A DNA stretch of 32,000 bases from Pseudomonadota bacterium (GTDB lineage: Bacteria > Pseudomonadota > Gammaproteobacteria > Burkholderiales > Burkholderiaceae_C). Under the pieces are notes generated by a model. It was not told the DNA's origin and did no database searches. It saw only the letters and a program-made list of their open reading frames with translations. Where the stretch lies: positions 7,556-39,555 of the forward strand of contig JAZKAP010000023.1 in the NCBI GenBank assembly GCA_040389085.1, in the 5' to 3' direction. The position numbers and the translations under genes were made by a program. Below are positions 3,684 to 19,676 of this stretch, piece by piece (within the stretch, counting starts at the first letter, position 1; each line of letters starts with the position of its first letter).

Positions 3684-3958
3684 ATTTCGACAGATCTATT
3701 CGGAGTTACACGCAATTCGGCAGTTCATTTATCACCGGCAGGAACGAACGGGATGGGGTTCCCAAGTTTCCTGGATACTTTACTTGATCCATCACCTTCA
3801 CTCAAAATCGACTCACCCAAAGTCGACGGTCTGCTTTGGCGCCAACGGTCGAATACCCTCTTTGGGCACGAAGCTGTAGTGGCCAACGTCCGCAATGCTG
3901 CCGCAAAAATGCTTGCAGTTCCCCGGGATAAGCCCACAGTTGGACGCCCTCAATCAAC

Positions 3959-4960: not shown

Positions 4961-5370
4961 TCACGCAGCACTTGCGCGCATTGGGCAGCACCGGCGAGTG
5001 GCCAGTGCACGTTCACCGTTGCGCCGCCACGTTGAATCTCGATGTGAATGATCTCGCAGGCAGGACTGGGTGCGTCTGACCCTGGCATGCGCTTGGGTTG
5101 GACTGAGTTTGCACCAACAGCCGCTGAAGCTTGCAGTTGCAGCGGTACGAACGCCGAGGCCGTCCGTTGCAGATCGACCACTATCTGGCGCTGTCGCTCC
5201 TCTCGCATCCATCGATGCACCATATTCGGATTGATTCCATGACTCAGGGCGACACCTGCAAGGGATGCGCCTGGCTGGCGACATTGCTCCAATACCGATG
5301 CCTTGAACTCCACGCTGTACTCGCGTCGCCGAGGGCGCTCTGCTGTCGACACTTTATCCATAGTCTCCAC
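4948..5370 (-). CDS. tnpA: IS66-family accessory protein TnpA (orfA, HTH)
   Basis: RRREYSVEFKASVLEQCRQPGASLAGVALSHGINPNMVHRWMRE is the IS66 orfA helix-turn-helix region. The stop overlaps the tnpB start. Start is GTG 5370 or ATG 5361, with a GAAGGAGA SD upstream. Confidence 0.7.
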   Translation of the reverse strand: METMDKVSTAERPRRREYSVEFKASVLEQCRQPGASLAGVALSHGINPNMVHRWMREERQRQIVVDLQRTASAFVPLQLQASAAVGANSVQPKRMPGSDAPSPACEIIHIEIQRGGATVNVHWPLAGAAQCAQVLREWLR

Positions 5371-5437
5371 GATCTCCTTCGTGGGGACGATGCCTGATCA
5401 CAGGCTTCTATTCAACATGGGATGGCCGGACGCATAC

Positions 5438-5607
5438 GTGCGGTCGGTAGCGGCGTCTTGTTTGCCTCCGCAACACCCGACCACATCGGCAAGACGCTGG
5501 CCTACGTGTCGGTGAAAGTGACGCTCGACGCACTCGACGGAGACATCGTGTCGCGCGGCATCGGCACCTATCGCATCTACACCAAGTCGCTGGTCAAGGC
5601 AGTCTGA
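5438..5607 (+). pseudogene. C-terminal remnant of a hotdog-fold (PaaI-like) thioesterase gene cut by the IS66 end
   Basis: GVLFASATPDHIGKTLAYVSVKVTLDALDGDIVSRGIGTYRIY fits the PaaI-type C-terminal pattern (..A.A...H.G.T.A...V......G.....G.GT..I). The ATG given in the ORF track (5422) lies inside the putative IS66 terminal repeat, so it is not a genuine start. Confidence 0.35.
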
Positions 5608-5647
5608 CCGGCGCAGGGCCGAAAGTCGCCTGGCAGCGTACTCCCGC

Positions 5648-7741
5648 TCAATGCACATGATCATCGGGCGGCGGCAGGATGCGCGGCTCGCGGTGGATGC
5701 GTTCGATTTGGTCGAGCAGAAACTGCGTGTCGCGCCAACCTTCACCGGCGCCCTCCTCGTCCTGCGGCAGCCAGCGCGCACGCACATAGCCGAATCGGTC
5801 GATCAGGAATTCCATGTGAGACGGTGGTTCCCCCAAGACGGTCTTGCCGGGGTCGTTCAAGGTACGCCGGAACAGCAAGTAGGCGGTCGCCGCCTCCTGC
5901 GCCCCGTCGGTGACGACGGAAAACGGCAACGACGGCGAAGAAGTGGCACCCGGCAACGCAATAGCAATCACCTCGGTGCCGCTTGATTGCAACTGCGGAT
6001 AGACACGCGCCAGTTCGGCCAGGCGTTGCGCGGAGAAGGGCTGCGAGTAAAAGACCAGCAGCACGGACTTGCGCTCCCTGTACGCCTTGAGCGCCGCGGC
6101 CAGTCCCGACCGGGTCACAAAATCGAAATCGGGCGGACCGAGCCAGGGCCGCCCGGGGACCACCTGCGGCGTCAGGATGCGGGCCTGGAAGCCCGCGGAG
6201 AAGGCGCGCAAGAAGTTCACCATGTCCCAGCGCTCCTCGTCGGTCATTTCCTGTGCAAAGCCGGGCATGGCGGTTTTCGGCTTGCCGTGGGTGAGCCACC
6301 AGAAGAGGTCGCCCGCCGTGTGCAACGCGGTATGCGGCTCGGTGAGGTCGGCGGGCCTGGTGGGCAAGCGGGCGGCCAGCGGACCGTCCCCCTTGCCACC
6401 CGGACCGTGACAGGACACGCAGTGCTGGGAAAACAGCGCCGCCCCGCGCGTGACCGACACCGCGTTGTAACTGACATCCGTGCGCCGGTAAGTGTCGGGA
6501 TAGGCGTCCACCGACAACGCGTATAGAACGATGGCCAGCCCCGAGAAAGTCACCAGCACGGCAGCACCCAAACGGATCCGGCGCCCGCCCTGCGCCGCGT
6601 CGGCGCAGGCCCCTGACACAAGGGCATGCACCAGCCAAGCCAGTCCGCCCATAGCCAGCAACGACGCACCCACGACCGTGCTCACCACCCCCGGTTTGTC
6701 CCAGGTGGCCGCGAGCGACAGACGAAACGGCAGCGGCCACAACATCTGCGCATGGGCCGCGGGCAGCGTACCTGTCAGACCGGCTGCGAAGAGCAGGATC
6801 AGCAGCACAACGCCCAGTTCCACCCGGACCAGACCGGCCGCGCCTTGCCACGCAAGACCCTGCTCGAATGCCACTTTGCCCATACGCGGCATCCAGACCC
6901 AGCGAACCCGCGCTGCAACAAGCAGCACCGGCACCAGCAGAACCATTTTGGCCAACACCTGCAGACCGAACGATGTACTGAGCAGCGGGGCCAGGCTGCG
7001 TTCGAGCACCGTCATCAGACCGCCGAAGATGTCGTCTGTCCGCGCGGGCCAGCGGGTCGGCGCGCCGAACTGCAGGTACGCGATGAGGGTGCCGGATGCA
7101 ACGATCAGGGCAACGCAAACCGTCGCAAGCACCGAGAAGCGGCGCACCACGCCGAAGAACATCTTCCGGAACAGCGGATCCCGGCCTCTCGCAGCCAGGT
7201 GAAGTCCGTAGGCCAGCGCCGGCAGGCCGCCAGCCCAAACGCCCGCCGCCAGCAGATGCACGACATGGCCGACACCTGCGAGCCAAAGCGGTTCCGTGAC
7301 TGCGCCGTGCCCGGTAAATACCGCGGCCGCGTTAATCAGCAGCGCCAGGGTGAGCAGCGCTACGTCGACGATGCGCTCACCGAACCGCGCGATCAGAGGC
7401 CCACGGCCCAACAGCAGCAGCAACAAGATCAGCGCTGTCGCCTGCCGCACCTGCCAGACCGCGCCGTAGCGCGTTCGCTCCAGCAGCCTGGCCCATTCGG
7501 ACCACTGAAAGGCCGCCTCGCCGCGGCCGCTGACCGAAGCCGCCTGCAACATCAACAGACCTGCCGCCGTGGCCAGCAACAGTGCCACCAGCCATGGCGC
7601 GGCAGCAAAGACCGCGCCACGCCAGCGCGCAGCATCCGGGCTTCGACCAGGACCTGCGAGCAACAGCAGGGAAAAGCTGCCCAACAGCACCAGGCCGCTG
7701 GTCAGTTGCAGCCAGCGCAGCGCCGTGCCGAGGAATTCCAT
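5648..7741 (-). CDS. copD: CopD-family membrane protein fused to a mono-haem cytochrome c domain and a C-terminal thioredoxin/peroxiredoxin-like domain lacking the CxxC
   Basis: 697 aa. Residues 1-~410 are a run of hydrophobic helices typical of CopD. CVSCH haem c motif is at aa 441-445 (nt 6407-6421, verified by hand). The C-terminal segment KSVLLVFYSQPFSAQRLAELARVYPQLQSSGTEVIAIAL is redoxin-like, with SQPFS where Cys-x-x-Cys is expected. ATG 7741 directly follows the copC TAA. Confidence 0.8.
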   Translation of the reverse strand: MEFLGTALRWLQLTSGLVLLGSFSLLLLAGPGRSPDAARWRGAVFAAAPWLVALLLATAAGLLMLQAASVSGRGEAAFQWSEWARLLERTRYGAVWQVRQATALILLLLLLGRGPLIARFGERIVDVALLTLALLINAAAVFTGHGAVTEPLWLAGVGHVVHLLAAGVWAGGLPALAYGLHLAARGRDPLFRKMFFGVVRRFSVLATVCVALIVASGTLIAYLQFGAPTRWPARTDDIFGGLMTVLERSLAPLLSTSFGLQVLAKMVLLVPVLLVAARVRWVWMPRMGKVAFEQGLAWQGAAGLVRVELGVVLLILLFAAGLTGTLPAAHAQMLWPLPFRLSLAATWDKPGVVSTVVGASLLAMGGLAWLVHALVSGACADAAQGGRRIRLGAAVLVTFSGLAIVLYALSVDAYPDTYRRTDVSYNAVSVTRGAALFSQHCVSCHGPGGKGDGPLAARLPTRPADLTEPHTALHTAGDLFWWLTHGKPKTAMPGFAQEMTDEERWDMVNFLRAFSAGFQARILTPQVVPGRPWLGPPDFDFVTRSGLAAALKAYRERKSVLLVFYSQPFSAQRLAELARVYPQLQSSGTEVIAIALPGATSSPSLPFSVVTDGAQEAATAYLLFRRTLNDPGKTVLGEPPSHMEFLIDRFGYVRARWLPQDEEGAGEGWRDTQFLLDQIERIHREPRILPPPDDHVH

Positions 7742-8110
7742 TTACTTCCCAGCGCCCTCGGCCTTCACGGTGAAGGTATAACCGTAATCGACCGTATGGC
7801 CATCGACCGAGAGCACCCGGTATTTCACGGTATAGGTACCCGGGCTGAGCATGGGCAATTCCAGCGCCAGCAGTTTGGGGTCGTCCTTGTCAACCCGGGC
7901 CTTCTGGGTCGTGACCGGGCCGGCACCTTCCCTGATCACGCTGATCGTCGCGTACTCGGGCTCCAGCCGCTCGTTGAACCACAGCCTGACCTGCGGCGGC
8001 GGTTTGGACAGCGTCGCCCGCCGTGCCGGTTCGGACTTGACCAGCGCGGCATGCGCCAGCGCCGTGCCAGTGGCGGCCATGGCCAGCAGCGCGACGAGCC
8101 ACGAAACCAT
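7742..8110 (-). CDS. copC: CopC-domain periplasmic copper-binding protein
   Basis: ORF 7742..8275 trimmed to ATG 8110. Signal peptide MVSWLVALLAMAATGTALA is followed by HAALVKSEPARRATL (mature N-terminal His as in CopC). The C-terminal segment GTYTVKYRVLSVDGHTVDYGYTFTV is the CopC signature. Confidence 0.88.
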   Translation of the reverse strand: MVSWLVALLAMAATGTALAHAALVKSEPARRATLSKPPPQVRLWFNERLEPEYATISVIREGAGPVTTQKARVDKDDPKLLALELPMLSPGTYTVKYRVLSVDGHTVDYGYTFTVKAEGAGK

Positions 8111-8124
8111 CTTGCGCCGGGCGT

Positions 8125-8580
8125 TCACTCGGCGCGCACCCAGGTTTGCGAGCGCCCTATCATCGGCACGCCGATGAAACCTCGAACCTCGAGTTTCTTG
8201 CCCCCGTCGGCGGGCCGCAGACGCAGCCGGTAGGTCGACCCATTCTCCGGATCGAGCACCTCGCCGCCGTCCCACAGCGCAGCGTCAGCGGTATTGTGTT
8301 TGATGCCGCGAATAATCGTCATCCCGACCACCGGCTTGTCCTTGCGGTCGTCGGTGCATTTCGTGCAGACGGTCGCCGCCTTGGGATCGAGGAGTTTCTC
8401 GATCACGCCACTGAGCACGCCAGCCGATTCGCTGATGCGTATCAAGGTTTTCACGGTCTTGCCGTCGTCGTCAATCGTCTTCCAGAGACCAACAGGTGTG
8501 TCCTGCGCAAAAGCAGGAGCGGCTGCCCAGGCAAGGAAAGCGATGGCGAGTACGTGTTTCAATGTTTTTTCGATTTTCAT
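8125..8580 (-). CDS. DUF2147 domain-containing secreted protein
   Basis: ORF 8125..8658 trimmed to ATG 8580 (alternative 8595). Signal peptide MKIEKTLKHVLAIAFLAWAAAPAFA, then QDTPVGLWKTIDDDGKTVKTLIRI, CTKCTDDRKDKPVVGM and GGEVLDPENGSTYRLRL..........LEVRGF, as in DUF2147 proteins. Confidence 0.8.
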   Translation of the reverse strand: MKIEKTLKHVLAIAFLAWAAAPAFAQDTPVGLWKTIDDDGKTVKTLIRISESAGVLSGVIEKLLDPKAATVCTKCTDDRKDKPVVGMTIIRGIKHNTADAALWDGGEVLDPENGSTYRLRLRPADGGKKLEVRGFIGVPMIGRSQTWVRAE

Positions 8581-8868
8581 GAGGCTTTCTTTCATTGTGG
8601 GTAAACGGGAAACGACTTCATGGGCCGATGACGCTATTACTTCAATAGCTGCTTGCACTCATATTCATTGGCTTCAGGGACGATTTGACTGTACGTTTAT
8701 GGTTTGGCCTTACCCTGATTCGGCACGACCACCACACTCACCTTCTGTACCGAGGATTCGATGGTCTTGTGGGACGCATCGGACCAGTACGCGCTGGCCG
8801 GGGTGCGCCAGCGAGATCAGCGCACGCACTCGCGCACGGTCACTCGGCGCCCTCCTTCGCGCTATCGG

Positions 8869-11034
8869 TTATTTCTTGGGCCGGATCGCATCGGCCGTGC
8901 CCTGGATAAAGGCCTTGATCTTCTCCACATCGTCTTTGCTGAGCTTGCCCGTGAAGTCAGGCATGCCCCGGTTCATGGCCGGGCCTTTGAAGACGAACTT
9001 GTCGAGGTTCTCGATATAGGGGGCTCCGATGTAGCCCAGGTTGGGAATGTTGCCGCCGCGGTCCACGCCGGGCACGCCGTGGCAGAACACGCAGTTGCTC
9101 ACATACAGCGCGGTGCCGGCCGGCACCTGGGCTGGGTCGTATTTCACGCCCGCCACCAACTCGTCCATGCGGTACTTCACAAACTCGGGCATCGGCGCCT
9201 TGCCGCCCACCGCGAAGGTATAAACCGTGCCCGGCCCCTGCCGGTCGGTGGCGCGCTGCGCCAAGCCATACACGCCGCCCCAGCCGACCGCAATCGACAC
9301 ATACTGCTTGCCGTCCACCAGGTAGGTCGATGGAGCGGCCACCACGCCAGTGCCTGTGGGCGACTCCCAGAGCTTCTCGCCGGTGCGTGCATTGAAGGCG
9401 ATGAAGCGGCCATCGGCCGTGCCCTGGAATACCAGGTCACCCGCGGTGGTCAGCGTACCGCCGTTCCACGGCGACACATGCTCCTGCGTCCAGGCGGCCT
9501 TTTGCTGCACAGGGTCCCAGGCGATCAGGCGGCCGAACGGGGCACTCTTGGGTGGCTCGACGTTGGCAAACGTCGCGATGTTCCAGCCCATGTTGCTGTG
9601 CGGCTCACCCGGGCGCACGCTGTTGAACTTCCAGTCCTTGTTGTCCATCAGCGTGAGCGGCACGCCCTGCGCCGGCAGGTAGACCAGCCCGGTCTGCGGG
9701 TTGAACGACATGGAGTGCCAGTTGTGCGCACCGAACGCGCTGGGAATGATCTCGCGCGGCCGGTCGGCCACGCGCGCGTTGGGCGTTTCGATCGGGCGGC
9801 CGTCCTTGTCGTAGCCCGTCGCCCAGTTCACGTCGACGAAGTTCTTGGCCGAGATGAACTTGCCGTTGGTACGGTCGATCACGAAGAAGAAGCCGTTCTT
9901 CGGCGCATGCAGGATCACCTTGCGCGGCTTGCCTTCTATCTTCAGGTCGGCCAGGATCATCGGCTGGGTCGAGGTGAAGTCCCAGTTGTCGCCGGGCGTT
10001 TGCTGGTAGTGCCAGACGTACTTGCCGGTGTCGGGGTTGAGCGCGACGATGGACGCGAGATACAGGTTGTCTCCGCCCGCGGGGCTGCGTTTGCTGCGCG
10101 CCCAGGGCGAGCCGTTGCCGGTGCCCACATACATCAGGTTCAGTTTGGGGTCGAAGGTCAGTGTGTCCCAGGCGGTGCCGCCGCCGCCGGCTTCCCAATA
10201 CTTGCCTGCGGGGTCCCAGGTCTTGGCGGCCTTGGCCATGGACTCGTCCTCGAACGGTTTGCTCGGGTCGCCGGGCACCGTGAACCAGCGCCATTTTTGC
10301 TCGCCGCTGGCGGCGTCGTAGGCCGTGATGTAGCCGCGCACGCCGTACTCGGCGCCGCCGTTGCCGATGATGACCTTGCCCTTGAACACGCGCGGTGCGC
10401 CGGTGATGGTGTACGAGAACTTGCGGTCGATGATGGTGTCTTTTTCCCAGACCTTGTTGCCGGTGGCCGCATCGAGCGCGATCAGCCGGCCGTCGTAGGC
10501 GGCGACGAAGACCTTGCCCTGGTACAGCGCCACGCCGCGGCTCACCACGTCACAGCAGCCCTTGTAGCCGGCCTCGCGCGGGACCTGCGGGTCGAAGGTC
10601 CAGATCTTTTTGCCGCTGCGCACATCAATGGCGTGGACGATGCTCCACGAAGCGCTGACATACATGATGCCGTCCACCACCAGCGGCGTGGCCTCGACGC
10701 CGCGCGTCGATTCGAGGTTGTACGACCAGACCAAGCCCAGGTCTTTCACGTTGGCGGCGTTGATCTGGTTCAGGCGCGAGAAGCGCGTCTCGGCATAGTC
10801 CAGGCCGTAGCTGGGCCAGTCGTTCGTGCGCGCCTCGTTGGCGCGGATAAATGCACCATCGACCTTCTTGGTCACGGCCGCAATGTGCGCCTTCGAGCCC
10901 TTGGCCCCCTCGGCCATGGCGGCTGGCGCTGCCGTGGCGAACAGCGAAGCCACCGCCAACGTCAAGACCATGGCAGGCCATTTTGCAGATTTCCCTTGCC
11001 GGGCCTGACTCGCCGGGTTCATCCAACTATTCAT
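8869..11034 (-). CDS. Type II quinohemoprotein alcohol dehydrogenase (PQQ beta-propeller plus C-terminal cytochrome c domain)
   Basis: ORF 8869..11166 trimmed to ATG 11034 (AAGGAG SD 6 nt upstream; alternative ATG 11052). Signal peptide ends AAMA. Motifs are NDWPSYGLDYAETRFSRLNQIN, vicinal-Cys motif YKGCCDVVSRG, repeated W-propeller motifs, and a C-terminal CVFCHGVPG haem c site. Confidence 0.92.
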   Translation of the reverse strand: MNSWMNPASQARQGKSAKWPAMVLTLAVASLFATAAPAAMAEGAKGSKAHIAAVTKKVDGAFIRANEARTNDWPSYGLDYAETRFSRLNQINAANVKDLGLVWSYNLESTRGVEATPLVVDGIMYVSASWSIVHAIDVRSGKKIWTFDPQVPREAGYKGCCDVVSRGVALYQGKVFVAAYDGRLIALDAATGNKVWEKDTIIDRKFSYTITGAPRVFKGKVIIGNGGAEYGVRGYITAYDAASGEQKWRWFTVPGDPSKPFEDESMAKAAKTWDPAGKYWEAGGGGTAWDTLTFDPKLNLMYVGTGNGSPWARSKRSPAGGDNLYLASIVALNPDTGKYVWHYQQTPGDNWDFTSTQPMILADLKIEGKPRKVILHAPKNGFFFVIDRTNGKFISAKNFVDVNWATGYDKDGRPIETPNARVADRPREIIPSAFGAHNWHSMSFNPQTGLVYLPAQGVPLTLMDNKDWKFNSVRPGEPHSNMGWNIATFANVEPPKSAPFGRLIAWDPVQQKAAWTQEHVSPWNGGTLTTAGDLVFQGTADGRFIAFNARTGEKLWESPTGTGVVAAPSTYLVDGKQYVSIAVGWGGVYGLAQRATDRQGPGTVYTFAVGGKAPMPEFVKYRMDELVAGVKYDPAQVPAGTALYVSNCVFCHGVPGVDRGGNIPNLGYIGAPYIENLDKFVFKGPAMNRGMPDFTGKLSKDDVEKIKAFIQGTADAIRPKK

Positions 11035-11057
11035 GCTGGCTCCTTTTTTCATGCTGT

Positions 11058-11669
11058 TTACTTTTGAGGTATGTCGGTAATTAGGGTTCTGCGCCGCTGT
11101 CCGGTGAGTCGGTACAAAAGCCAGGCCAGGCCGATAAAGAGCAAGGGCAATGGCAGGTATTTCCAATAGTTGCGCACGCCGACGCGAAACGGAAAGACCG
11201 AGTTCTCCGTCTTTCCGCTGGCCGCATCCGTCGCGCTGAGCAGGCCGATGTACCAGCCGGGCTCGCTGAACCTGTGGTCCAGGGTGACCGTGCCGCGCGG
11301 ATAAGCCTTGGCCGGCAGCGCCACCATCGTCCGCTGCGCGATCCTGCCCGTATCGCCAAGATCCTCGTAGCGTGCCTTGGCACCAAGCCCGTCCGCGTCA
11401 CGCAGGATGCGAAATTCGACCACGCGTTCGCGCAGTGCGGGCTGGATGAAGTCAATCACGATCACTGCCCGTCCGACTTCGGGGATGTCCTCGCAGAACT
11501 CCTGACTGGCACGGTGCTCGGGCTGGTAGCCGGCGAAATGGGCCCGGTCGCTGCCGATGCGCAGAATGCACTTGTCGTCTTCAATGCCGACCCCGCCATG
11601 CGCCCATGCCGATGCCGCAGCCACTGCAAGCAGCGCGGAACTCAACGTTCGGATCAGTCGCATCTGCAT
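11058..11669 (-). CDS. Secreted protein with a C-terminal membrane anchor; candidate PmoD/AmoD-like CuMMO accessory protein
   Basis: ORF 11058..11807 trimmed to ATG 11669, which shares one base with the xmoB TGA (TGATG). Signal peptide MQMRLIRTLSSALLAVAAASAWA is followed by HGGVGIEDDKCILRIGSDRAHF. C-terminal TM helix is YLPLPLLFIGLAWLLYRL. Position and topology match PmoD/AmoD; homology itself is not verified. Confidence 0.55.
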   Translation of the reverse strand: MQMRLIRTLSSALLAVAAASAWAHGGVGIEDDKCILRIGSDRAHFAGYQPEHRASQEFCEDIPEVGRAVIVIDFIQPALRERVVEFRILRDADGLGAKARYEDLGDTGRIAQRTMVALPAKAYPRGTVTLDHRFSEPGWYIGLLSATDAASGKTENSVFPFRVGVRNYWKYLPLPLLFIGLAWLLYRLTGQRRRTLITDIPQK

Positions 11670-12910
11670 CACCCTCCGAACAGCGGAATCATCGGTCCGC
11701 TGATCTCTACTGGATAGCGACGGCCCTGCGCATCGAAGAAGAACAGCATGCCGGCGACCACCGCATCCGGGGAAGCGATCATCGTCGTCATGCGCTGCGT
11801 CTCCCACATCGCATCGTCCGCATAGACCACGATCTTCTTCGTTTCTCCTGGATTGATCGAGCCGCCCTCCACGCGCAACGCGTCTGTCGCGACCAGATCA
11901 TCCTGGTCTTTTGGTGTGACCTTCAGCACCGCGGAATTGATAAAGCGAAGACCGCCTGAGGCAAACTCACCGACGCTCACGGGACTCTTCCCACTGTTGG
12001 TTACCGTGAGCTCGATACGGAAGCTCCGGCCCGGGATGCGGTAGCGTGCATCATCCATAGTGACCAACACTGGCGAAGGCTCCATCTTCAGGGTAGATGT
12101 CCTTATCTTGCCGGTCTGTAGCGGCGTCGTGACCGGCCAGCGCTCGGTGGCATAGAAAAACCCGCCAGCGATAAGCATCAGCGTAGCCACCAGGATAACC
12201 AGTGCCGCCTGACGGTCGCGCGTGGTGATCATGTCGTCGGCGTTCTCACCCAGCGCGCTGGCACGCCGGAACCTCGGCAAGATCAAAGGCACCTTGGTCA
12301 GCCAATAGCCAAACCAGACCAAACCAAGCACAACCCACACCGCTGACCAGGAAGCCGCATTAGCAAAGCCGTGCGTTTCCAAATCAAGGGTTTGGCCGAA
12401 CAACGTTTTGATGCTGTTTTCAAATGCCGCCGGGTCGCCCCCGACCTCGACCCAGATGCCGGGGCCAATCATCGGCCCGGCATCCAGCACGTTGATGATG
12501 GGATGCAGGTGATAGCGGCCGGGTGTGCGGGCCTTCAGCGTGATCTCGAAGTTGTACTGCTCACCGCGCTTATACGAACTACTGCGTATGGTGGGCACAC
12601 CGTTGACGCGGCTGTCCAAGCGCACAAAAGAAGGCCCGGGTACGCCCACATTGAGATAGGCGGTGTCCTCGATGGACGCGACATGCTCCGGCCAGGACAG
12701 GGAAGGAACAAAAGTTCCCTTGACGACCAGAATTTGGTTGACATCGAGCTTGCGCGTCGACAAATCCACGTCAAACCAATGCACGGTGCGCATACGCAAA
12801 GCGGGTTGCTGAGCCTTTTCACCATGGGCATACGTTGGCGTTGCCGAAAACGTGACCAGGACGACGATCAGGCCTTGAATGACTGCGAACAATTTTGCAA
12901 TGAAATTCAT
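11669..12910 (-). CDS. xmoB: Copper membrane monooxygenase subunit B (PmoB/AmoB family)
   Basis: ORF 11669..12967 trimmed to ATG 12910 (AAGGAAGAGG SD). Signal peptide ends PTYA, followed by HGEKAQQPALRMRTVHWFDV. RYHLHPIINV carries the His-x-His. Two central TM helices separate two periplasmic beta-rich domains, as in PmoB. Confidence 0.93.
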   Translation of the reverse strand: MNFIAKLFAVIQGLIVVLVTFSATPTYAHGEKAQQPALRMRTVHWFDVDLSTRKLDVNQILVVKGTFVPSLSWPEHVASIEDTAYLNVGVPGPSFVRLDSRVNGVPTIRSSSYKRGEQYNFEITLKARTPGRYHLHPIINVLDAGPMIGPGIWVEVGGDPAAFENSIKTLFGQTLDLETHGFANAASWSAVWVVLGLVWFGYWLTKVPLILPRFRRASALGENADDMITTRDRQAALVILVATLMLIAGGFFYATERWPVTTPLQTGKIRTSTLKMEPSPVLVTMDDARYRIPGRSFRIELTVTNSGKSPVSVGEFASGGLRFINSAVLKVTPKDQDDLVATDALRVEGGSINPGETKKIVVYADDAMWETQRMTTMIASPDAVVAGMLFFFDAQGRRYPVEISGPMIPLFGG

Positions 12911-12920
12911 GACCTCTTCC

Positions 12921-13673
12921 TTAAACAACTTTTCGCAGCCACACGGCCTTGACACCGAGTGAGCCAACCCAGGCCCAGAACCAGAGGCTTAATATGGTCA
13001 GGAAGCCCGCGAAAACCGCCGTCAACGGCGTGACTGCATCGCCGAATGTCCTCAAAGTACTCTGTTCGATGATGCGCACATATTCGGGCATGGCAGTGCG
13101 GATGTACTCAAAACCCATCACGTCCGCCACCGTCATCAGCGTGCCGTGCATTTCGACCGGCACCATGAACGGAGCCAGCAGTGGCCAGTTCATTGGGTAC
13201 AGAAGCAGCCCCGAAAGAAAGCCAGCAAAAATTCCCGTGAAAAACCAGCTGCGCGTGAGCAGCAAGGTGCAATCGATCAACAGACCAACGCCAATGAAAG
13301 TCGACGGCAGTACCATGTTCATCGGAAAACCCGCGAACTCATGAAAGTTCAAGTACCGGCTCAACCAGCCCGTCAGCGTCAGCCCGATAATGCTCAGCGT
13401 CGCACCCAGAGGTATGCGCAGCAAATGCCAAAAGGCATAGCCAAATACGCCGGGCAGAATAACCAGCACCAATGGCGTGACCAGCGGCCAATAACGGCGG
13501 TCCCGCCAATCGATCCAGTAATCCCAGTCCCCCACCAGCAAGGCAAACTGGAAGGCGAATACGGACCCCAGAAGCACCACAAAGAGCGGAATGACCACCC
13601 AGTCAACCTGGGCATCAACGCGGGCCGCTTCCTGCGGGCTAAAGGCGGCCTCAGCCGGAGTCAAAACGGACAT
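12921..13673 (-). CDS. xmoA: Copper membrane monooxygenase subunit A (PmoA/AmoA family)
   Basis: 250 aa; ATG 13673 with a TGGAGA SD. Carries the family signature GDWDYWIDWRDRRYWPLVTP and is polytopic and hydrophobic throughout. The stop lies 10 nt before the xmoB start. Confidence 0.95.
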   Translation of the reverse strand: MSVLTPAEAAFSPQEAARVDAQVDWVVIPLFVVLLGSVFAFQFALLVGDWDYWIDWRDRRYWPLVTPLVLVILPGVFGYAFWHLLRIPLGATLSIIGLTLTGWLSRYLNFHEFAGFPMNMVLPSTFIGVGLLIDCTLLLTRSWFFTGIFAGFLSGLLLYPMNWPLLAPFMVPVEMHGTLMTVADVMGFEYIRTAMPEYVRIIEQSTLRTFGDAVTPLTAVFAGFLTILSLWFWAWVGSLGVKAVWLRKVV

Positions 13674-13759
13674 TCAAAGTCTCCAGAAATAAATTGGGAG
13701 GTCAAGCGCACAACTTGTCATCGAGACCTAGCCCCGATGCATTTACCCGGAAAGGCGTA

Positions 13760-14539
13760 TCAGAGAGCCGCTTGAAGCTCGGCTTGCGGCGACACCGACT
13801 GCTTCGTCAGCTCGGCCACGCGACCCAGTATCTGCAGGAGCAATCCACCAGCCGCAAACGTAGACCAGCCCAGCAACACAAAGCCATAGTGAATCGGCGC
13901 GGAGAACAACTCCTCGGCATAGAAGAAAGTGTGACCCCACTCGTTGAAACCCACGTTGGGCATGATCATGAACGCGCCGGCGACGATGATCGCGAACGGC
14001 AGCGAAATGCGATTGCCAAAGAGCGGGATGCGCGTGTGAGCGTAGGCGAACGAGATGAAGCCCCAAAACACCAGCAAAGGCACGCAGAAATAAAACAGGC
14101 CAATGTGAGTAGGGGTGAAATCAGTATCCCTAATCGTCACCTGATGCCATGCTGCGTCAGCCTCCGTGTAGATTGAGCCCGTCACATAAAACATGATGGC
14201 AAATAGCAAAATTTGAGCCATCAGCACGAACAGGCGCCGTAATTCCTCTCGCGGCCCGATTCGGGAGAAATCGCGCTCTCGTGTGCGCCAGAGATACACC
14301 AGCGTGCCGGTGCCCAGCGCGCCAATCAGCAGCAACTGCCCGAACAGCAGACGCATCCAGTAAACGTCGAACTCAGCGCTGAAATAGTCGAGCCCGTAAG
14401 TGAACGCAGTCGCTTCTGAATAGATGCGATAAACGCCGAACAGCACCGCAAAGCCCAGCAGTGCAACAAAGAATTTGGCCCACGGAGCCCCTGTGGCCGC
14501 CCGCGCAGCTCCAGTGATGTTGGTAGAACTCGTTTTCAT
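13760..14539 (-). CDS. xmoC: Copper membrane monooxygenase subunit C (PmoC/AmoC family)
   Basis: ORF 13760..14686 trimmed to ATG 14539 (AGGAGA SD). Motifs are EADAAWHQVTIRDTDFTPTHIGLFYF and NEWGHTFFYAEELFSAPIHYGF (Asn/His, then a His 14 residues later), the hallmark PmoC/AmoC motifs. Confidence 0.93.
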   Translation of the reverse strand: MKTSSTNITGAARAATGAPWAKFFVALLGFAVLFGVYRIYSEATAFTYGLDYFSAEFDVYWMRLLFGQLLLIGALGTGTLVYLWRTRERDFSRIGPREELRRLFVLMAQILLFAIMFYVTGSIYTEADAAWHQVTIRDTDFTPTHIGLFYFCVPLLVFWGFISFAYAHTRIPLFGNRISLPFAIIVAGAFMIMPNVGFNEWGHTFFYAEELFSAPIHYGFVLLGWSTFAAGGLLLQILGRVAELTKQSVSPQAELQAAL

Positions 14540-14659
14540 CGTCTTGTCTCCTGTTGTGTGAAGTAAACGTCGGGCCATTGAAAGCCTGCTTGTCGAATGG
14601 CGCGATCGGACTTCGTGCCAATGTGCTGGGAATGTTAGAGCCAAGCGTCTGCAACTACA

Positions 14660-14699
14660 CCTAACTTTCGTTAGGGTGTTTTTCATGGCGCATCGCCAT
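14660..14699. promoter_or_regulatory. Two perfect short palindromes in the xmoC / aldehyde dehydrogenase divergent region (candidate operator sites)
   Basis: CCTAAC-TTTC-GTTAGG at 14660-14675 and ATGGCG-CAT-CGCCAT at 14685-14699. Both lie within the 222-bp region between ATG 14539 (minus) and ATG 14762 (plus). Confidence 0.3.
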
Positions 14700-14761
14700 A
14701 GACTTGCGCCAACCTCGAATTGCCATCACAAAAGAGGACAAACAATATGAAGGAGACAAAA

Positions 14762-16213
14762 ATGAAGCTTGCTTCCCCTGCAATGCATCTTGTAAGCCCG
14801 GGCGAGCCCGTCGAGCAGTCCGAAATAGACCGCATCTTCGCCGCGCAGCGTGAGACGGCCTTACGGCTTCGTCAATCAACCGCCGCGCAGCGGCTCGACA
14901 AGATTGACCGCCTGAAGCGGGCCGTCCTGGCGCGCCAGGCTGACATCCAGCGCGCCGGCGCCCTGGACTTCGGCAAACCAGCCGCCGAGGTCGATCTGAC
15001 CGAAATTCTGCCGGTCGTGGCCGAGGCCAACGACGCGCGTCGCCACCTGCGCCGCTGGATGAAGCCGAACAAGGTTTTCCCCACCCTGTTGATGTTTGGC
15101 ACGTCAAGCTACGTGCAGTGCGAGCCCAAGGGCCGCTGCCTGATCATCTCGCCCTGGAACTATCCCGTCAACCTGACCTTCGGCCCGTTGATCTCGGCCA
15201 TCGCCGCCGGCAACACGGCCATTCTCAAACCCTCGGAGATGACACCGCATCTGTCGGCGCTGATGGCGGAGATCGTGCGCGAGGTGTTTCCCGAAGACGA
15301 GGTGGCCCTGTTCCAGGGCGACGCTTCGGTCTCGCAGGCCCTGCTGGATCTGCCGTTCGATCACATCTTCTTTACCGGCTCACCAGCGATTGGGCGCGTG
15401 GTGATGGCCGCGGCGGCCAAGCACCTGACCAGCGTGACCCTGGAACTGGGCGGCAAGAGCCCGACCATCGTTGACGCCACGGCGGACCTGAAGGCGGCAG
15501 CGGCGAACCTGATGTGGTCCAAATGCACCAACAGCGGCCAGACCTGCATTGCGCCGGATCACGTCTACGTTCATGAGTCAGTCAAGGAGTCCTTTGTCCA
15601 GCACTGCCGGGAGGCCCTGGCCAAAGCCTATGGCGAGGGCGACGCCACGCGCGGCAGTCCGCACTTGGCTCGCATCGTCAACCATAGCCATACCCAGCGG
15701 ATCATCGGACTGCTCGACGACTCGCTGCGCAAGGGTGCCCGCGTGCTCGTCGGCGGACAGCACCAGGCCGATCAGAAGTTCGTGACACCCACCTTGATCG
15801 ACCAGGTCAGCCCAGATGCGAAGATCATGCAGGAAGAAATTTTCGGCCCGCTGCTGCCCGTTATCGCCTACCGCGATCTCGACGAAGTCATCGGCAAAAT
15901 CAACGCCCAACCCAAGCCGCTCGCGCTGTACATCTGGACCAAGAATGGAAAGGTCGCCGACAAGGTGCTGCGGGAAACGAGTTCTGGCGGCGCCTGCGTC
16001 AACCACAGCGTCGTGCAGTTCCTGCACGGCCGGTTGCCGTTCGGTGGTGTCAACAACTCCGGCCTGGGCAGCGCGCACGGGATTTACGGGTTCAATGCCT
16101 TCAGCCATGAGCGCGCGGTCGTCAAAACCTGGCTGTTGCTGGCCTCGACCTTCTACCCGCCCTACACCCATCTGTCGCGACGGCTGATCAACTGGACGCT
16201 GCGTCTGGTCTGA
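14762..16213 (+). CDS. NAD(P)+-dependent aldehyde dehydrogenase, class 3 / AlkH-like
   Basis: ORF 14720..16213 trimmed to ATG 14762 (AAGGAG SD at 14750-14755); 483 aa. Motifs are LELGGKSP (catalytic Glu), NSGQTCIAPDHVYV (catalytic Cys), PWNYPVNL and EEIFGPLLPV. Confidence 0.9.
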   Translation: MKLASPAMHLVSPGEPVEQSEIDRIFAAQRETALRLRQSTAAQRLDKIDRLKRAVLARQADIQRAGALDFGKPAAEVDLTEILPVVAEANDARRHLRRWMKPNKVFPTLLMFGTSSYVQCEPKGRCLIISPWNYPVNLTFGPLISAIAAGNTAILKPSEMTPHLSALMAEIVREVFPEDEVALFQGDASVSQALLDLPFDHIFFTGSPAIGRVVMAAAAKHLTSVTLELGGKSPTIVDATADLKAAAANLMWSKCTNSGQTCIAPDHVYVHESVKESFVQHCREALAKAYGEGDATRGSPHLARIVNHSHTQRIIGLLDDSLRKGARVLVGGQHQADQKFVTPTLIDQVSPDAKIMQEEIFGPLLPVIAYRDLDEVIGKINAQPKPLALYIWTKNGKVADKVLRETSSGGACVNHSVVQFLHGRLPFGGVNNSGLGSAHGIYGFNAFSHERAVVKTWLLLASTFYPPYTHLSRRLINWTLRLV

Positions 16214-16223
16214 TGGTCTCGGT

Positions 16224-16256
16224 TGCACCGAGCTAGCCTGGTGCATTTCTTTTTTC
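16224..16256 (+). terminator. Possible weak intrinsic terminator/attenuator between the aldehyde dehydrogenase and GMC oxidoreductase genes
   Basis: TGCACC (16224-16229) pairs with GGTGCA (16240-16245) across a 10-nt loop. It is followed by TTTCTTTTTTC (16246-16256). Confidence 0.35.
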
Positions 16257-16279
16257 TCTGAATCGCATAGGGACAAATC

Positions 16280-17878
16280 TTGAAATTCGATTACATCATC
16301 GTGGGCGCCGGTTCGGCCGGCTGTGTCTTGGCCAACCGATTGAGCGCGGATCCGTCTAACCGCGTGTGCCTGCTCGAAGCGGGGCGATCCGACGACTCAC
16401 CGCTGATCCGCACGCCCATGGGCCTCGTGGGCTTGCTCGCCACCCGCAAGTACAACTGGTATTTCGACACCGAACCACAAGCCGAACTCGAAGGTCGTCG
16501 CCTGTACTGGCCGCGGGGAAAAACAATCGGGGGCAGCAGCTCGATCAATGCCATGGTCTACATGCGCGGGCACCAGGCTGATTACGACGCATGGGCAGCA
16601 GCGGGAAACGCCGGATGGGCCTACAAGGATCTGCTGCCGATCTTTATGGAACATGAGAATAACGAGCGCGGTGTCTCGACCTACCACAGAACAAATGGAC
16701 CACTGAACGTCGCCGATGTGCGCTCGCCCAACCCGTTGTCGGGCCGCTTCATCGACGCCGCCGTGCAATGCGGCATTCCGCGCAACATGGACTTCAACGG
16801 AGCGCAACAGGAAGGTGCAGGGCCTCACCAGGTGACCCAGAAGAACGGGGAACGCTGGAGCAGCGCTCGGGCATTCCTGCACCCTGTCATGGACAGGTCG
16901 AATCTGACCGTGCTCACCGGCGCCCATGTCACGCGCATCCTGTTCTCTGGCAAACAGGCCGTGGGGGTCGAGATCGAGCGCAAAGGCGAACGCCAGCGCA
17001 TCGAGGCCGAGCGTGAAATCGTGTTGAGCGGCGGCGCCATCAATTCGCCGCAATTGCTGCTGCTGTCGGGCGTGGGATCCAAGCAGACGCTGGCACAGCA
17101 CGGCATCGCACAAGTGGCCGATTTGCCAGGCGTGGGCCAGAACCTGCAGGACCATCTCGACGTGACGGTGATGATCCGCGACCGCAGCAAGCAGGCTGTT
17201 GGCGTAGCACCCGGATTTCTACCGAGAGCGGTCGCCGGGCTCTGGCAATATTGGCGCAGGCGCGAAGGCTTCCTGTCCAGCAACGTGGCAGAGACAGGGG
17301 GCTTCGCCAGGCTCTCGCCGCAATCGGCGCTGCCGGAGGTGCAATTCCACTTCCTGCCAACCTACCTGCGCAACCACGGCCGTGACCTGGCCCCGGGCTA
17401 CGGCGCCACCTTGCACATGTGCCAGTTGCGCCCCCAAAGCCGTGGTTTCATCGGCCTCAAAAGCGCCGACCCGCTGGCCGCACCGATGATTCAGCCCAAC
17501 TACCTGAGCCATGCCGACGACTGGGACGAGATGCTGCGTGGCCTGAAACTTGCGCGACGCATCTTTGAGGCCAAGGCCTTCCACGACATCAATGGCGGCG
17601 AAGTGGCGCCGGGTGCCGGCGTGCGCAGCGACCAGGATCTGAAGGCCTACATCCGGCGCAGTGCGGAAACCATTTACCACCCGGTCGGCAGTTGCAAGAT
17701 GGGCAATGACGACATGGCCGTGGTCGATGCGCAGTTGCGGGTGCACGGGCTTTCGGGCCTGCGTGTCGCCGACGCATCGATCATGCCTACGGTTATCGGC
17801 GGCAACACCAATGCCCCTTGCATGGTGATCGGCGAGAAGTGTGCGCGGGCCATCCTGTCAAGCCACAAACTTCAGTAG
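16280..17878 (+). CDS. GMC-family FAD oxidoreductase (choline/alcohol dehydrogenase, AlkJ-like)
   Basis: TTG start at 16280 (AGGGA SD upstream). Motifs are MKFDYIIVGAGSAGCVLANRLSADPSNRVCLLEAG (Rossmann FAD motif), GKTIGGSSSINAMVYMRG, and C-terminal HPVGSCKMG...VADASIMPTVIGGNTNAP. Confidence 0.92.
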   Translation: MKFDYIIVGAGSAGCVLANRLSADPSNRVCLLEAGRSDDSPLIRTPMGLVGLLATRKYNWYFDTEPQAELEGRRLYWPRGKTIGGSSSINAMVYMRGHQADYDAWAAAGNAGWAYKDLLPIFMEHENNERGVSTYHRTNGPLNVADVRSPNPLSGRFIDAAVQCGIPRNMDFNGAQQEGAGPHQVTQKNGERWSSARAFLHPVMDRSNLTVLTGAHVTRILFSGKQAVGVEIERKGERQRIEAEREIVLSGGAINSPQLLLLSGVGSKQTLAQHGIAQVADLPGVGQNLQDHLDVTVMIRDRSKQAVGVAPGFLPRAVAGLWQYWRRREGFLSSNVAETGGFARLSPQSALPEVQFHFLPTYLRNHGRDLAPGYGATLHMCQLRPQSRGFIGLKSADPLAAPMIQPNYLSHADDWDEMLRGLKLARRIFEAKAFHDINGGEVAPGAGVRSDQDLKAYIRRSAETIYHPVGSCKMGNDDMAVVDAQLRVHGLSGLRVADASIMPTVIGGNTNAPCMVIGEKCARAILSSHKLQ

Positions 17879-17987
17879 ATTCATTCGCATAAAAGTCACC
17901 ACTCCGGAGAGGCGCTATGGCACCTCTCAACACGATACCCGGCCAGTGGCCGGATTTAGCCTTAACCAAAAAACCCAAGGAGACTTC

Positions 17988-19628
17988 ATGAATGGTCAAA
18001 TGATGAGCGCCCCCCTGCTCATTTCCTCACTCATCACCCATGCGGCGCGCCATAGCGGCGATGTGCCCATCGTCTCGCGCCGCGTCGAAGGTGACATCCA
18101 CCGCACCACCTATGCGCAATTGCATGACCGTTCGCGCCAGATGGCCCATGCGCTCGGCGGTCTCGGGGTGCAAGCGTCGCAGCGCGTCGCCACGCTGGCC
18201 TGGAACGGCTACCGTCACCTGGAGCTGTATTTCGCCGCCTCCGGCAGCGGTTCGGTGCTGCACACCCTCAACCCGCGCCTGCACCCGGACCAGTTGCTCT
18301 ACATCCTCGACCATGCCGAGGACCAGGTGCTGTTCTTTGACCTGACCTTCCTGCCCCTGGTCGAGGCCGTGGCGGGGCGCTGCAAGACGGTGCGTCACTT
18401 TGTCGCGATGATCGACAAGGACAAGATGCCGGCGAGCAAGCTGCCCAAGCTGCTGTGCTACGAAGACCTGATCTCGGCGCACAAGCCCGACTTTGCATGG
18501 CCCACCTTCGACGAGAACACTGCCTCGTCGCTGTGCTACACCTCGGGCACCACCGGCAACCCCAAGGGCGTGCTCTACAGCCATCGCTCGACGATGCTGC
18601 ACACCTATGCCTCGCTCATGCCGGACGCGATCTCCATCTCATCGCGCGACTGCGTGATGCCGGTGGTGCCGATGTTCCACGCCAATGCCTGGGGCCTGCC
18701 CTACAGTTGCGCGATGGTCGGCGCCAAGCTGGTGCTGCCGGGGTCGGCGCTGGACGGCAAATCGCTGCACGAACTGATCGCCGCCGAACAAGTGTCGTTT
18801 GCGGCCGGCGTGCCCACGATCTGGCTTGGCATGCTCCAGTATGCCGAACAAAACGCGCTCAGCCTCGCCCCCCTGAAGCGCACCATCATCGGTGGCTCGG
18901 CCGTGCCGCCAAGCATGATGCGGGCATTTGAAGATAACCATGGCATCGAAGTCATCCACGCCTGGGGCATGACGGAGATGTCGCCCCTGGGCACGGTCAG
19001 CCGGCTGAAGCAGAAACACCTGTCCATGCCACTGGACGAACAGCATGCGCTGCTCGCCAAGCAAGGCAAGGCCGTGTTCGGCGTGGACATGCGCATCGTC
19101 GATCCGCAGGGGGTCGATGTCCCCTGGGACGGCAAGACGCAAGGCGATCTGCTGGTGCGCGGACTGTGGGTGGTTCAGAGCTACTTTGGCGCTGATGGTG
19201 CCAAACCCCTGGTGAGTGACGCAGCAGGCGTGCCCTGGTTCCCCACCGGCGACGTGGCCATGATCGACGCCGACGGCTACATGCAAATCACTGATCGCAG
19301 CAAGGACGTGATCAAGTCCGGCGGCGAATGGATCGGTTCGATCGATCTGGAAAACGTCGCCATGGCGCACCCGGCGGTGGCGATGGCTGCCGCCATCGCC
19401 GTGCCGCACCCGAAATGGGATGAACGGCCCTTGCTCGTGGTGGTGCGCAAGCCGGGCGCGGAGGTCACCCGCGAAGCGCTGATTGAACACTACAAAGGCA
19501 AGGTCGCCTCCTGGTGGGTGCCTGACGACGTGGTGTTCGTCGAGGCCATCCCCATCGGCGCCACTGGCAAGATGCTGAAGAACCAGTTGCGTGAGCAGTT
19601 CAAGGACCACCGGCTGCCGGGGGTCTAA
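17988..19628 (+). CDS. Medium/long-chain fatty-acid--CoA ligase, AlkK-like
   Basis: ORF 17841..19628 trimmed to ATG 17988 (AAGGAG SD at 17977-17982); 546 aa. Motifs are [23 protein letters not shown]-loop [55 protein letters not shown] and [10 protein letters not shown]. Confidence 0.92.
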
Positions 19629-19632
19629 AAGA

Positions 19633-19665
19633 TTTGCGGTAAACATATTCAATGAATGCCGCAAA
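19633..19665. terminator. Interrupted hairpin between the convergent ligase and LuxR-type genes
   Basis: TTTGCGG (19633-19639) pairs with CCGCAAA (19659-19665), with an inner ATTC/GAAT stem. On the minus strand it is followed by TCTTTTA, so it is most plausibly the terminator of the regulator gene. Confidence 0.35.
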
Positions 19666-19676
19666 AGCAAGCCCCA

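Follow-up and report, generated by a model that had tools for sequence, protein, structure and literature searches.

Here we analyse a 32,000-nt stretch of DNA from a Pseudomonadota bacterium (contig JAZKAP010000023.1 of GenBank assembly GCA_040389085.1, positions 7,556 to 39,555), referred to below as the window. The locus at 11669-14539 is a genuine and intact copper membrane monooxygenase (CuMMO) operon which, together with the adjoining gene xmoD, forms an xmoCABD cluster. The host is a member of the Comamonadaceae, a bacterium of the Polaromonas/Hydrogenophaga type. We consider it likely that XmoCAB and XmoD provide the hydroxylating first step of a self-contained alkane-to-acyl-CoA cassette in this host. 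As identical public sequences exist and operons of the same kind have been described in the same genera, the xmo operon is of an already known kind and not a discovery.

An intact xmoCAB operon followed by xmoD

The original prediction placed three adjacent minus-strand subunit genes here in the order C-A-B, and this reading stands, all three being intact open reading frames. Together with the gene that follows them they are:

13760..14539, minus strand, xmoC, CuMMO subunit C, 259 aa (Pfam AmoC)
12921..13673, minus strand, xmoA, CuMMO subunit A, 250 aa (Pfam AMO)
11669..12910, minus strand, xmoB, CuMMO subunit B, 413 aa, with signal peptide (Pfam Monooxygenase_B)
11058..11669, minus strand, xmoD, PmoD/AmoD homologue, 203 aa (match to PmoD 6CPD, sequence reading)

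The search with AmoA, AmoB and AmoC family models that had been proposed as a check returned strong Pfam matches (E = 7e-72 to 2e-122). XmoC matches AmoC (PF04896) at 7.1e-72 and 242 bits (gathering cut-off 26.7), XmoA matches AMO (PF02461) at 6e-76 and 256 bits (gathering cut-off 27.5) and XmoB matches Monooxygenase_B (PF04744) at 1.7e-122 and 410 bits (gathering cut-off 22.7). Three adjacent subunit genes above the Pfam gathering thresholds, in the order C-A-B, make the locus a member of the CuMMO family. Among individual proteins, the PmoC chains of 3RFR, 4PHZ and 1YEW match XmoC with E values near 1e-60, and PmoA of M. capsulatus Bath matches XmoA at 2e-62.

The two spacers read previously, 86 nt between xmoC and xmoA and 10 nt between xmoA and xmoB, are both confirmed, and the A-B junction holds TAAGGAAGAGGTCATG. 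Further along the minus-strand string the gap from xmoB to xmoD is -1 nt and that from xmoD to an alcohol dehydrogenase gene is 23 nt; the string is presumably co-transcribed. The xmoC start at 14539 and a GGAGA Shine-Dalgarno sequence 5' of it are both conserved across an alignment of 7 related loci (loci compared with the window carry L numbers in the following, L001-L086 being xmo-related and L087 being NC_007950.1:48000-72000). While the three subunit genes had been named correctly, xmoD, copCD and the co-oriented quinohemoprotein alcohol dehydrogenase had been overlooked, and the GC background of 63-73% was set too high, as GC amounts to 56-68% per kb and to 62.5% over the whole window. 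Rfam and tRNA scans across the whole window gave no matches.

Copper ligands of XmoB and XmoC

The mature N-terminal histidine of XmoB (TYA/HGEK, the slash marking the cleavage) and the RYHLHP motif align with the CuB ligands His33, His137 and His139 of Bath PmoB. In XmoC the CuC set (Asp/His/His) is found as DAAWH-x12-H, i.e. D-x3-H-x12-H, and the CuD set (Asn/His/His) as NEWGH-x13-H, i.e. N-x3-H-x13-H, all six ligands matching PmoC of 3RFR and 4PHZ column for column. Thus, in the alignment to solved structures of particulate methane monooxygenase (pMMO), nine of nine CuB, CuC and CuD ligands are conserved. The motifs quoted in the original prediction (HGEK after TYA, RYHLHP, and NEWGH with a second histidine) are all present and fall on these ligands, and the Asn/His/His arrangement that it took for a PmoC metal site corresponds to CuD. 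At the position of Bath His72, XmoB has valine, so that the Bath-type His48/His72 bis-His site is incomplete. The CuC and CuD sites are defined in current structural work, which places the active site of pMMO and of ammonia monooxygenase (AMO) there (PMC13058606).

The accessory protein XmoD

The start of xmoD overlaps the stop of xmoB in a TGATG junction. No Pfam or NCBIfam model recognises the protein, and a search of PDB sequences returned PmoD 6CPD alone (E = 7e-19). In XmoD a signal peptide is followed by a cupredoxin-like domain, which contains two cysteines, and by a C-terminal hydrophobic transmembrane helix; both family cysteines are aligned with 6CPD (Cys34 and Cys59 of the precursor). 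A signal peptide, two invariant cysteines, a C-terminal transmembrane helix and a CuMMO neighbour, the defining features of the PmoD/AmoD family (Fisher et al. 2018, PMC6189053), are all found in XmoD. The motif Cx7MxHxnC of the CuA-forming subclass (Cys41, Met49 and His51 of Methylocystis PmoD) is absent: arginine replaces Met49, and none of 75 clade members has methionine at this position. The replacement puts XmoD into the motif class Cx9HxnC, in which copper is bound and CuA is not formed (PMC6189053). Overall, xmoD lies 3' of xmoB in 75 of the 86 related loci.

The mature N-terminus of XmoD reads H-G-G-[VM]-x-x-x-[DE]-D-x-C in 75 of 75 clade loci, almost always with HGGV, and the conserved N-terminal histidine stands about 10 residues ahead of the first invariant cysteine. 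This extension appears to be missing from the Methylocystis PmoD construct in the alignment to the 6CPD chain. The N-terminal histidine may be part of a putative copper site resembling a histidine brace.

XmoCAB is distinct from canonical methane and ammonia monooxygenases

Against the narrower NCBIfam models only XmoB passes, exceeding the AmoB_BACT cut-off with 525 bits. XmoA misses both AmoA_BACT (262 versus a cut-off of 290) and TIGR03080 (257 versus 318), and XmoC likewise misses AmoC (271.5 versus 319) and TIGR03078 (234 versus 281). We built a bootstrapped neighbour-joining tree of 36 sequences for XmoB, with PmoB of Bath and 20Z and AmoB of 9CL6 and 9LEG as references. XmoB of the window clusters with its counterparts in Polaromonas, Hydrogenophaga and Rhodoferax, this Comamonadaceae group nests in a clade of Burkholderiales and Nevskiales, and the PmoB and AmoB references separate from all Xmo sequences, each at 100% bootstrap. 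With few references the tree rejects nesting in pMMO or AMO and does not give the global place of the clade. The phylogenetic check proposed earlier, run here on XmoB with four references, therefore puts the enzyme outside the canonical clades, in line with the equivalog cut-offs missed by XmoA and XmoC.

A canonical pMMO or AMO identity is rejected on these grounds, together with an XmoB identity of 39-42% to PmoB and AmoB of solved structures. In public databases P0001 and its relatives are named 'methane monooxygenase/ammonia monooxygenase subunit A', despite the sub-cut-off scores of XmoA and XmoC.

Alcohol dehydrogenase and putative copper-handling genes downstream of xmoD

The minus-strand string continues beyond xmoD with the following features:

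8869..11034, minus strand, type II quinohemoprotein alcohol dehydrogenase (pyrroloquinoline quinone, PQQ, plus heme c), 721 aa (Pfam PQQ and Cytochrome_CBB3)
8697..8790, minus strand, 3' relic (about 30 codons) of a His/Met-rich periplasmic reading frame of about 160 aa (blastn break at about 8795, translated L002 reading frame)
8125..8595, minus strand, DUF2147 protein, about 156 aa, with signal peptide (Pfam DUF2147, 2e-28)
7742..8110, minus strand, copC, periplasmic copper-binding protein (Pfam CopC, 2e-23)
5648..7741, minus strand, copD-cytochrome c-thioredoxin-like (AhpC/TSA) fusion, 697 aa (Pfam CopD, Cytochrom_C and AhpC-TSA)

The alcohol dehydrogenase, whose gene has the same orientation as xmoD, is a periplasmic protein. 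It scores 687 bits against TIGR03075 (methanol/ethanol family) and 1256 bits against the quinohemoprotein ethanol dehydrogenase (qhEDH) of Comamonas testosteroni (1KB0) over residues 46-720 (675 residues), with further matches to 1KV9 and 1YIQ and the heme motif CVFCHG. The PQQ beta-propeller, the C-terminal cytochrome c and the proximity to qhEDH/ADH IIB identify it as a type II quinohemoprotein. The original prediction had stated that no MxaF/XoxF-type methanol dehydrogenase is present. This holds for orthologues in the window, but the statement missed this C2+ PQQ alcohol dehydrogenase of the same superfamily, directly past xmoD. Its second statement, the lack of a hydroxylamine oxidoreductase (HAO), is correct for the window, which contains no hao-like gene; as partner enzymes, MxaF/XoxF, C1 assimilation and HAO are all missing from the 32 kb.

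Between the alcohol dehydrogenase and DUF2147 genes, a secreted His/Met-rich protein of about 160 aa (containing DEHSHGGHGSHAM) is encoded intact in 6 of 6 closely related contigs (in L002 at 14930-15421) and has no Pfam match. About 510 bp are deleted here in the window (8697-8868). The protein looks like another periplasmic copper-binding protein, lost by the window strain. The DUF2147 gene is kept at the same position in L001-L010. It is separated from copC by 14 nt and copC from copD by 0 nt, all co-oriented. The predicted mature CopC begins with histidine (ALA/HAAL), and XmoD shares this histidine at the N-terminus after predicted cleavage. The CopD fusion matches NCBIfam copper_CopD at 4e-22, under its cut-off, and has a cytochrome c domain at residues ~430-512 and an AhpC/TSA thioredoxin-like domain at ~537-655; in related loci, homologues that span half of the protein or more adjoin copC. 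It may serve in copper reduction or delivery. Signal peptides or membrane domains are present in XmoD, CopC, CopD-cytochrome c and DUF2147 alike.

Divergent genes and a conserved palindrome

On the other side of xmoC the cassette continues divergently:

14540..14761, no strand, intergenic control region from which xmoC and the aldehyde dehydrogenase gene diverge (sequence reading)
14762..16213, plus strand, NAD(P)-dependent aldehyde dehydrogenase, 483 aa (Pfam Aldedh, 4e-102)
16280..17878, plus strand, GMC flavoprotein oxidoreductase, 532 aa (Pfam GMC_oxred_N and GMC_oxred_C)
17988..19628, plus strand, acyl-CoA ligase, 546 aa (Pfam AMP-binding)
19677..22364, minus strand, MalT/LuxR-type STAND regulator, about 891-895 aa (Pfam TPR_MalT, GerE (HTH) and AAA_16)

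The GMC oxidoreductase scores 646 bits against the NCBIfam PRK02106 subfamily and is a candidate second alcohol dehydrogenase. The acyl-CoA ligase exceeds the cut-off of NCBIfam PRK07008 with 966 bits, and long-chain-fatty-acid--CoA ligase subfamilies match as well. The Pfam and NCBIfam matches thus bear out the earlier statement that multi-carbon alcohol, aldehyde and acyl-CoA enzymes lie on both sides of the xmo genes.

A perfect palindrome, CCTAAC-GAAA-GTTAGG, at 14660-14675 is found exactly and at the same position in L001-L012. It forms the most conserved block of the 7-locus intergenic alignment (mean identity 72%), with diverged flanks, and is the best-kept element of the divergent promoter region across all Comamonadaceae loci. 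We regard it as a candidate operator. The gene of the MalT/LuxR-type protein, a candidate regulator of the cassette, is convergent with the aldehyde dehydrogenase-GMC-ligase operon and is kept in L002, L003, L006-L008 and L010. In L001, L004 and L005 its place is taken by genes for an OmpW-family outer-membrane protein and a branched-chain-type ABC transporter. The control region shows no sigma-70 or sigma-54 consensus site, and a wider search for the sigma-54 consensus was uninformative (56 matches versus 52.8 expected).

The same cassette bears an unrelated hydroxylase in Polaromonas sp. JS666

Plasmid 2 of Polaromonas sp. JS666 (NC_007950.1:48000-72000) bears the same cassette as window positions 5433-20834. 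At the amino acid level the JS666 orthologues are 82% identical for the quinohemoprotein alcohol dehydrogenase and 92% for the aldehyde dehydrogenase, the GMC oxidoreductase and the acyl-CoA ligase, and the stretch from the promoter region through the ligase gene is 88.7% identical in nucleotides. The regulator is 91% identical and truncated by an IS6 element. This cassette is without xmoCABD, and a P450 with ferredoxin and reductase is encoded beyond the alcohol dehydrogenase. Along its whole sequence the P450 matches PDB 7ANT (965 bits), the next best match being CYP153A7. CYP153A of JS666 has been shown by experiment to be an alkane omega-hydroxylase (PMC8479775; Scheps 2011 as referenced in PMC3604635).

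Upstream of its alcohol dehydrogenase gene, JS666 still has about 95 nt from the 3' end of xmoD, and a fragment of the copC/copD junction is retained as well. From these relics, the JS666 cassette most likely descends from a form bearing xmo and cop genes. Since two unrelated hydroxylases feed one route from alcohol via aldehyde and acid to acyl-CoA, this comparison gives the best available genomic argument for alkane hydroxylation by XmoCAB. The relics further suggest that membrane copper and soluble P450 hydroxylases are exchangeable within one downstream pathway.

Carriers, selection and mosaic divergence

A public protein recorded on at least 68 contigs, cultured Polaromonas isolates among them, has the same sequence as XmoA (100% identity); NCBI labels it 'Hydrogenophaga sp.' and UniRef 'unclassified Polaromonas'. 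A survey of one genome per species found XmoA unchanged (100%) in Polaromonas sp. AET17H-212 and in a pair of Polaromonas metagenome-assembled genomes (MAGs), and 99% identical in Polaromonas AER18D-145. Identity falls to 97% in MAGs of Rhodoferax and Hydrogenophaga, to 89% in one MAG of Acidovorax, to 76% in further Burkholderiales MAGs and to 63-72% in loci that bear the labels Solimonas, Nevskia, Panacagrimonas, Sinimarinibacterium and related taxa. MAGs of Porticoccaceae and Azotimanducaceae are also among the XmoA relatives. One public Polaromonas MAG encodes XmoC, XmoB, XmoD and alcohol dehydrogenase proteins that match those of the window at 100%. In view of these identities the novelty seen by the original prediction was overstated, whereas its mention of CuMMOs in alkane-utilising Betaproteobacteria proved right, the lineage occurring in Polaromonas, Rhodoferax and Hydrogenophaga. 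In nucleotides, the window is 93-98.6% identical to the contigs compared, and none is identical. AER18D-145 (Polaromonas eurypsychrophila) and AET17H-212 were both cultured from uranium tailings, and their genome note is silent on the operon.

The gene context is shared by 6 independent contigs and 7 loci from species-representative genomes. Across the 86 loci the conserved core is xmoCAB followed by xmoD. In most gammaproteobacterial relatives that carry them (Nevskiales-labelled and others), copC/copD lie directly 3' of xmoD. The Comamonadaceae have elaborated on the core with the alcohol dehydrogenase, DUF2147 and the ALDH-GMC-ligase operon. A distant DNA search of a plasmid collection with xmoCABD gave weak 100-nt matches to methanotroph plasmids and the JS666 relic only, so that xmoCABD is on no plasmid of that collection.

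The xmo genes are under purifying selection: the ratio of nonsynonymous to synonymous substitution rates (dN/dS) of xmoA, xmoB and xmoD is 0-0.19, and xmoA differs from that of L002 by 10 synonymous and 0 nonsynonymous changes. Divergence is mosaic across 8869-13673, with a dS versus L002 of 0.056 for xmoA and of 0.51 for the adjacent alcohol dehydrogenase, and the GC content at third codon positions is 0.70 in xmoCAB versus 0.78-0.88 in flanking genes. The low third-position GC and the low xmoA dS suggest that the hydroxylase module has its own history within the cassette, by recombination or separate acquisition.

Flanking regions

The region 22400-28513 encodes a thiolase-like protein, which in related loci is accompanied by a ChsH2-type partner, a further two AMP-binding ligases, one of them acetyl/propionyl-CoA synthetase-like, and a nitroreductase. 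These acyl-CoA genes may process short acyl-CoA products. On the other side, 3700-5640 consists of insertion-sequence debris, including:

4173-4610, DDE_Tnp_1_4 transposase, C-terminal fragment
4948-5370, IS3-type HTH OrfA

Synteny with related contigs stops at 5433, and at this edge an IS110 element is present in the sister locus L003.

Proposed function and alternative explanations

We infer an alkane substrate, a role of the accompanying proteins in copper supply and a link between regulator and operator. In the proposed pathway, XmoCAB would use O2 and two electrons to convert a short-chain n-alkane to the alcohol, with C2-C4 as the most likely substrate range and medium chains possible. 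By analogy with pMMO and AMO, catalysis would take place at the CuC/CuD site of XmoC, with CuB of XmoB also present. The aldehyde would then be formed by the periplasmic PQQ/heme-c dehydrogenase, possibly together with the GMC flavoprotein, and converted by the divergently encoded aldehyde dehydrogenase to the acid, which the acyl-CoA ligase would activate for beta-oxidation. CopC, CopD-cytochrome c, DUF2147 and XmoD are expected to supply and handle copper in the periplasm. Control of the divergent promoters probably lies with the MalT/LuxR-type regulator, which may act via the conserved palindrome.

The electron donor is most likely quinol, as is generally assumed for CuMMOs. It is doubtful, although conceivable, that the co-oriented heme proteins, i.e. 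the cytochrome c domain of the alcohol dehydrogenase and CopD-cytochrome c, act as the physiological reductant of the CuMMO, possibly through XmoD. If so, oxidation of the alcohol product would recycle electrons straight to alkane hydroxylation, and the cultured Polaromonas carriers, together with JS666 as a natural xmo-less host, would lend themselves to experiments on the electron donor of CuMMOs.

The enzyme could alternatively be a particulate methane monooxygenase, the host being an unrecognised (facultative) methanotroph. The copper ligand sets are those of pMMO, XmoB passes a generic methane/ammonia monooxygenase B model, the public annotation reads 'methane/ammonia monooxygenase' and a PQQ dehydrogenase of the methanol/ethanol family adjoins. 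We nevertheless consider this highly improbable: XmoB shares 40-42% identity with PmoB of solved structures and falls outside them at 100% bootstrap, XmoA and XmoC miss the equivalog cut-offs, the adjoining dehydrogenase is an ethanol-type quinohemoprotein (1KB0) rather than MxaF/XoxF, the downstream genes yield acyl-CoA and not C1 units, and a CYP153 alkane hydroxylase takes the place of the copper enzyme in a homologous cassette. Carriers studied by Rochman and colleagues reportedly did not assimilate 13C-methane. An ammonia monooxygenase of heterotrophic or lithotrophic nitrification is extremely unlikely as well. The window has no hao, cytochrome c554 or cM552 gene, and its neighbouring genes encode enzymes of carbon oxidation; XmoB shares 39% identity with AmoB of 9CL6 and 9LEG, on a separate branch, and the AmoA and AmoC models stay under cut-off, although the best NCBIfam models are indeed those of bacterial AmoA, AmoB and AmoC, with AmoB over its cut-off. 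Betaproteobacterial amo operons have copCD nearby, which the window shares. The order C-A-B followed by a D gene likewise resembles betaproteobacterial amoCABED (PMC13058606).

Oxidation of alkenes (ethylene or propylene) or chloroethenes appears very unlikely, be it epoxide-forming as proposed for Haliea-type CuMMOs or as co-metabolism of chlorinated ethenes. The P450 of the equivalent JS666 cassette also attacks cis-dichloroethene, and the XmoA relatives include MAGs of the Haliea-related Porticoccaceae and Azotimanducaceae. The promiscuity of CuMMOs (PMC6215863) would also fit such a substrate. However, no epoxide-handling genes (coenzyme M pathway, epoxide hydrolase or glutathione S-transferase) were seen among the open reading frames scanned, XmoB of the Porticoccaceae type is ~41% identical and lies outside the Burkholderiales and Nevskiales clade, and the cassette follows a route from alcohol through aldehyde and acid to CoA. 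Finally, the substrate might be another small molecule, such as acetone converted to acetol as by PmoCAB3 of Methylacidiphilum, or mainly medium-chain alkanes (C5-C10). A CuMMO homologue does oxidise acetone (PMC8630023), the JS666 module in place of xmoCABD is a medium-chain alkane hydroxylase and the acyl-CoA ligase matches medium- and long-chain subfamilies. All characterised CuMMOs, however, prefer substrates of up to C5 (PMC8262859), the isotope labelling of Rochman and colleagues reportedly used ethane and propane, and no genes of an acetol or methylglyoxal pathway were seen among the reading frames scanned, which leaves this explanation unlikely.

Several points weigh against the assignment of XmoCAB to short-chain alkane hydroxylation. 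The xmoCABD clusters described by Rochman and colleagues reportedly form three paralogous lineages, the main one less than 59% identical to then-known genes. The XmoB tree is without actinobacterial Hmo/Bmo and Haliea references, and the absence of mxaF/xoxF, hao and C1 assimilation covers the 32-kb window, not the rest of the genome. A sigma-70 scan of 5400-14900 found no promoter, and a terminator scan of the same region was uninformative (13 sites versus 9.1 +/- 3.0 expected). The carrier isolates were obtained on R2A agar rather than on alkanes, and the literature examined yielded no activity, expression or substrate data for this exact lineage. The CuMMOs of Polaromonas and Rhodoferax have moreover been classed as of unknown function (PMC8630023).

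As CuMMOs of organisms that are neither methanotrophs nor nitrifiers are annotated as 'methane/ammonia monooxygenase', pmoA/amoA surveys of the methane and nitrogen cycles may miscount them. Recognising the clade as a probable alkane enzyme avoids this error. The identical operons in the cultured isolates AER18D-145 and AET17H-212, together with the JS666 cassette, make work on substrate range, copper supply and electron donor feasible. The current picture of CuMMO biology is unchanged by these findings.

Comparison with known systems

The closest counterpart of the window is probably the xmoCABD cluster of Rochman and colleagues, compared here by host, gene order and proposed role. The host group, with Polaromonas and Rhodoferax, is shared, XmoA of the window being 97-100% identical to proteins of public Polaromonas, Rhodoferax and Hydrogenophaga genomes; the order is C-A-B-D in both and a role in n-alkane oxidation is proposed for both. 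In the window xmoD directly follows xmoB, and neither an MxaF/XoxF-type methanol dehydrogenase nor hao is present within its 32 kb. The clusters are said to have been linked to stable isotope labelling with ethane and propane, to a lack of methane assimilation and to propane-induced xmoA transcription. Later papers cite Rochman et al. 2020 (ISME J 14:714) for the CuMMOs of alkane-utilising Polaromonas and Rhodoferax and the gaseous-hydrocarbon monooxygenase of Hydrogenophaga sp. T4 (PMC8630023, PMC9213486). Hydrogenophaga was also the top 13C-propane-labelled MAG at a gas seep, with no CuMMO reported in that MAG (PMC9213486). A 2026 data-mining paper lists MAGs of Burkholderiales, Pseudomonadales and Nevskiales with pmoCAB under the single label 'particulate methane/ammonia monooxygenase'.

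With pMMO of M. capsulatus Bath (3RGB, 7S4H) the window shares three homologous subunits in the same order, identical CuB, CuC and CuD ligands and a PmoD-type gene. It differs in an XmoB that is 42% identical and of a separate clade, in an XmoD of the Cx9H class without the CuA methionine and in the coupling to a C2+ quinohemoprotein alcohol dehydrogenase instead of MxaFI/XoxF. Betaproteobacterial AMO (amoCABED; 9CL6, 9LEG, 9PXF) comes from the same bacterial class and also has C-A-B followed by one or more genes of the PmoD family. In contrast to AMO, however, XmoB is 39% identical, a single D gene stands in place of E and D, the hao cluster is missing and carbon-oxidation genes are attached. 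The actinobacterial HMO of Mycolicibacterium NBB4 and BMO of Nocardioides CF8 are CuMMOs for C2-C4 alkanes in non-methanotrophs (PMC6215863, PMC8262859), which is the kind of enzyme proposed for the window. They belong to another phylum and presumably another clade, and their genomes are without PmoD (PMC6189053), whereas XmoD is near-universal in the clade of the window.

The JS666 CYP153A cassette, finally, has orthologous quinohemoprotein alcohol dehydrogenase, ALDH, GMC, ligase and regulator genes and an orthologous promoter region. Its hydroxylase is a soluble P450 with ferredoxin and reductase, in contrast to the membrane copper enzyme of the window, and its cop genes are relics only. 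The order ALDH-GMC-ligase(-OmpW) in the window and its relatives may parallel the alkH-J-K-L order of Pseudomonas putida GPo1 (alkHJK(L)/alkS).

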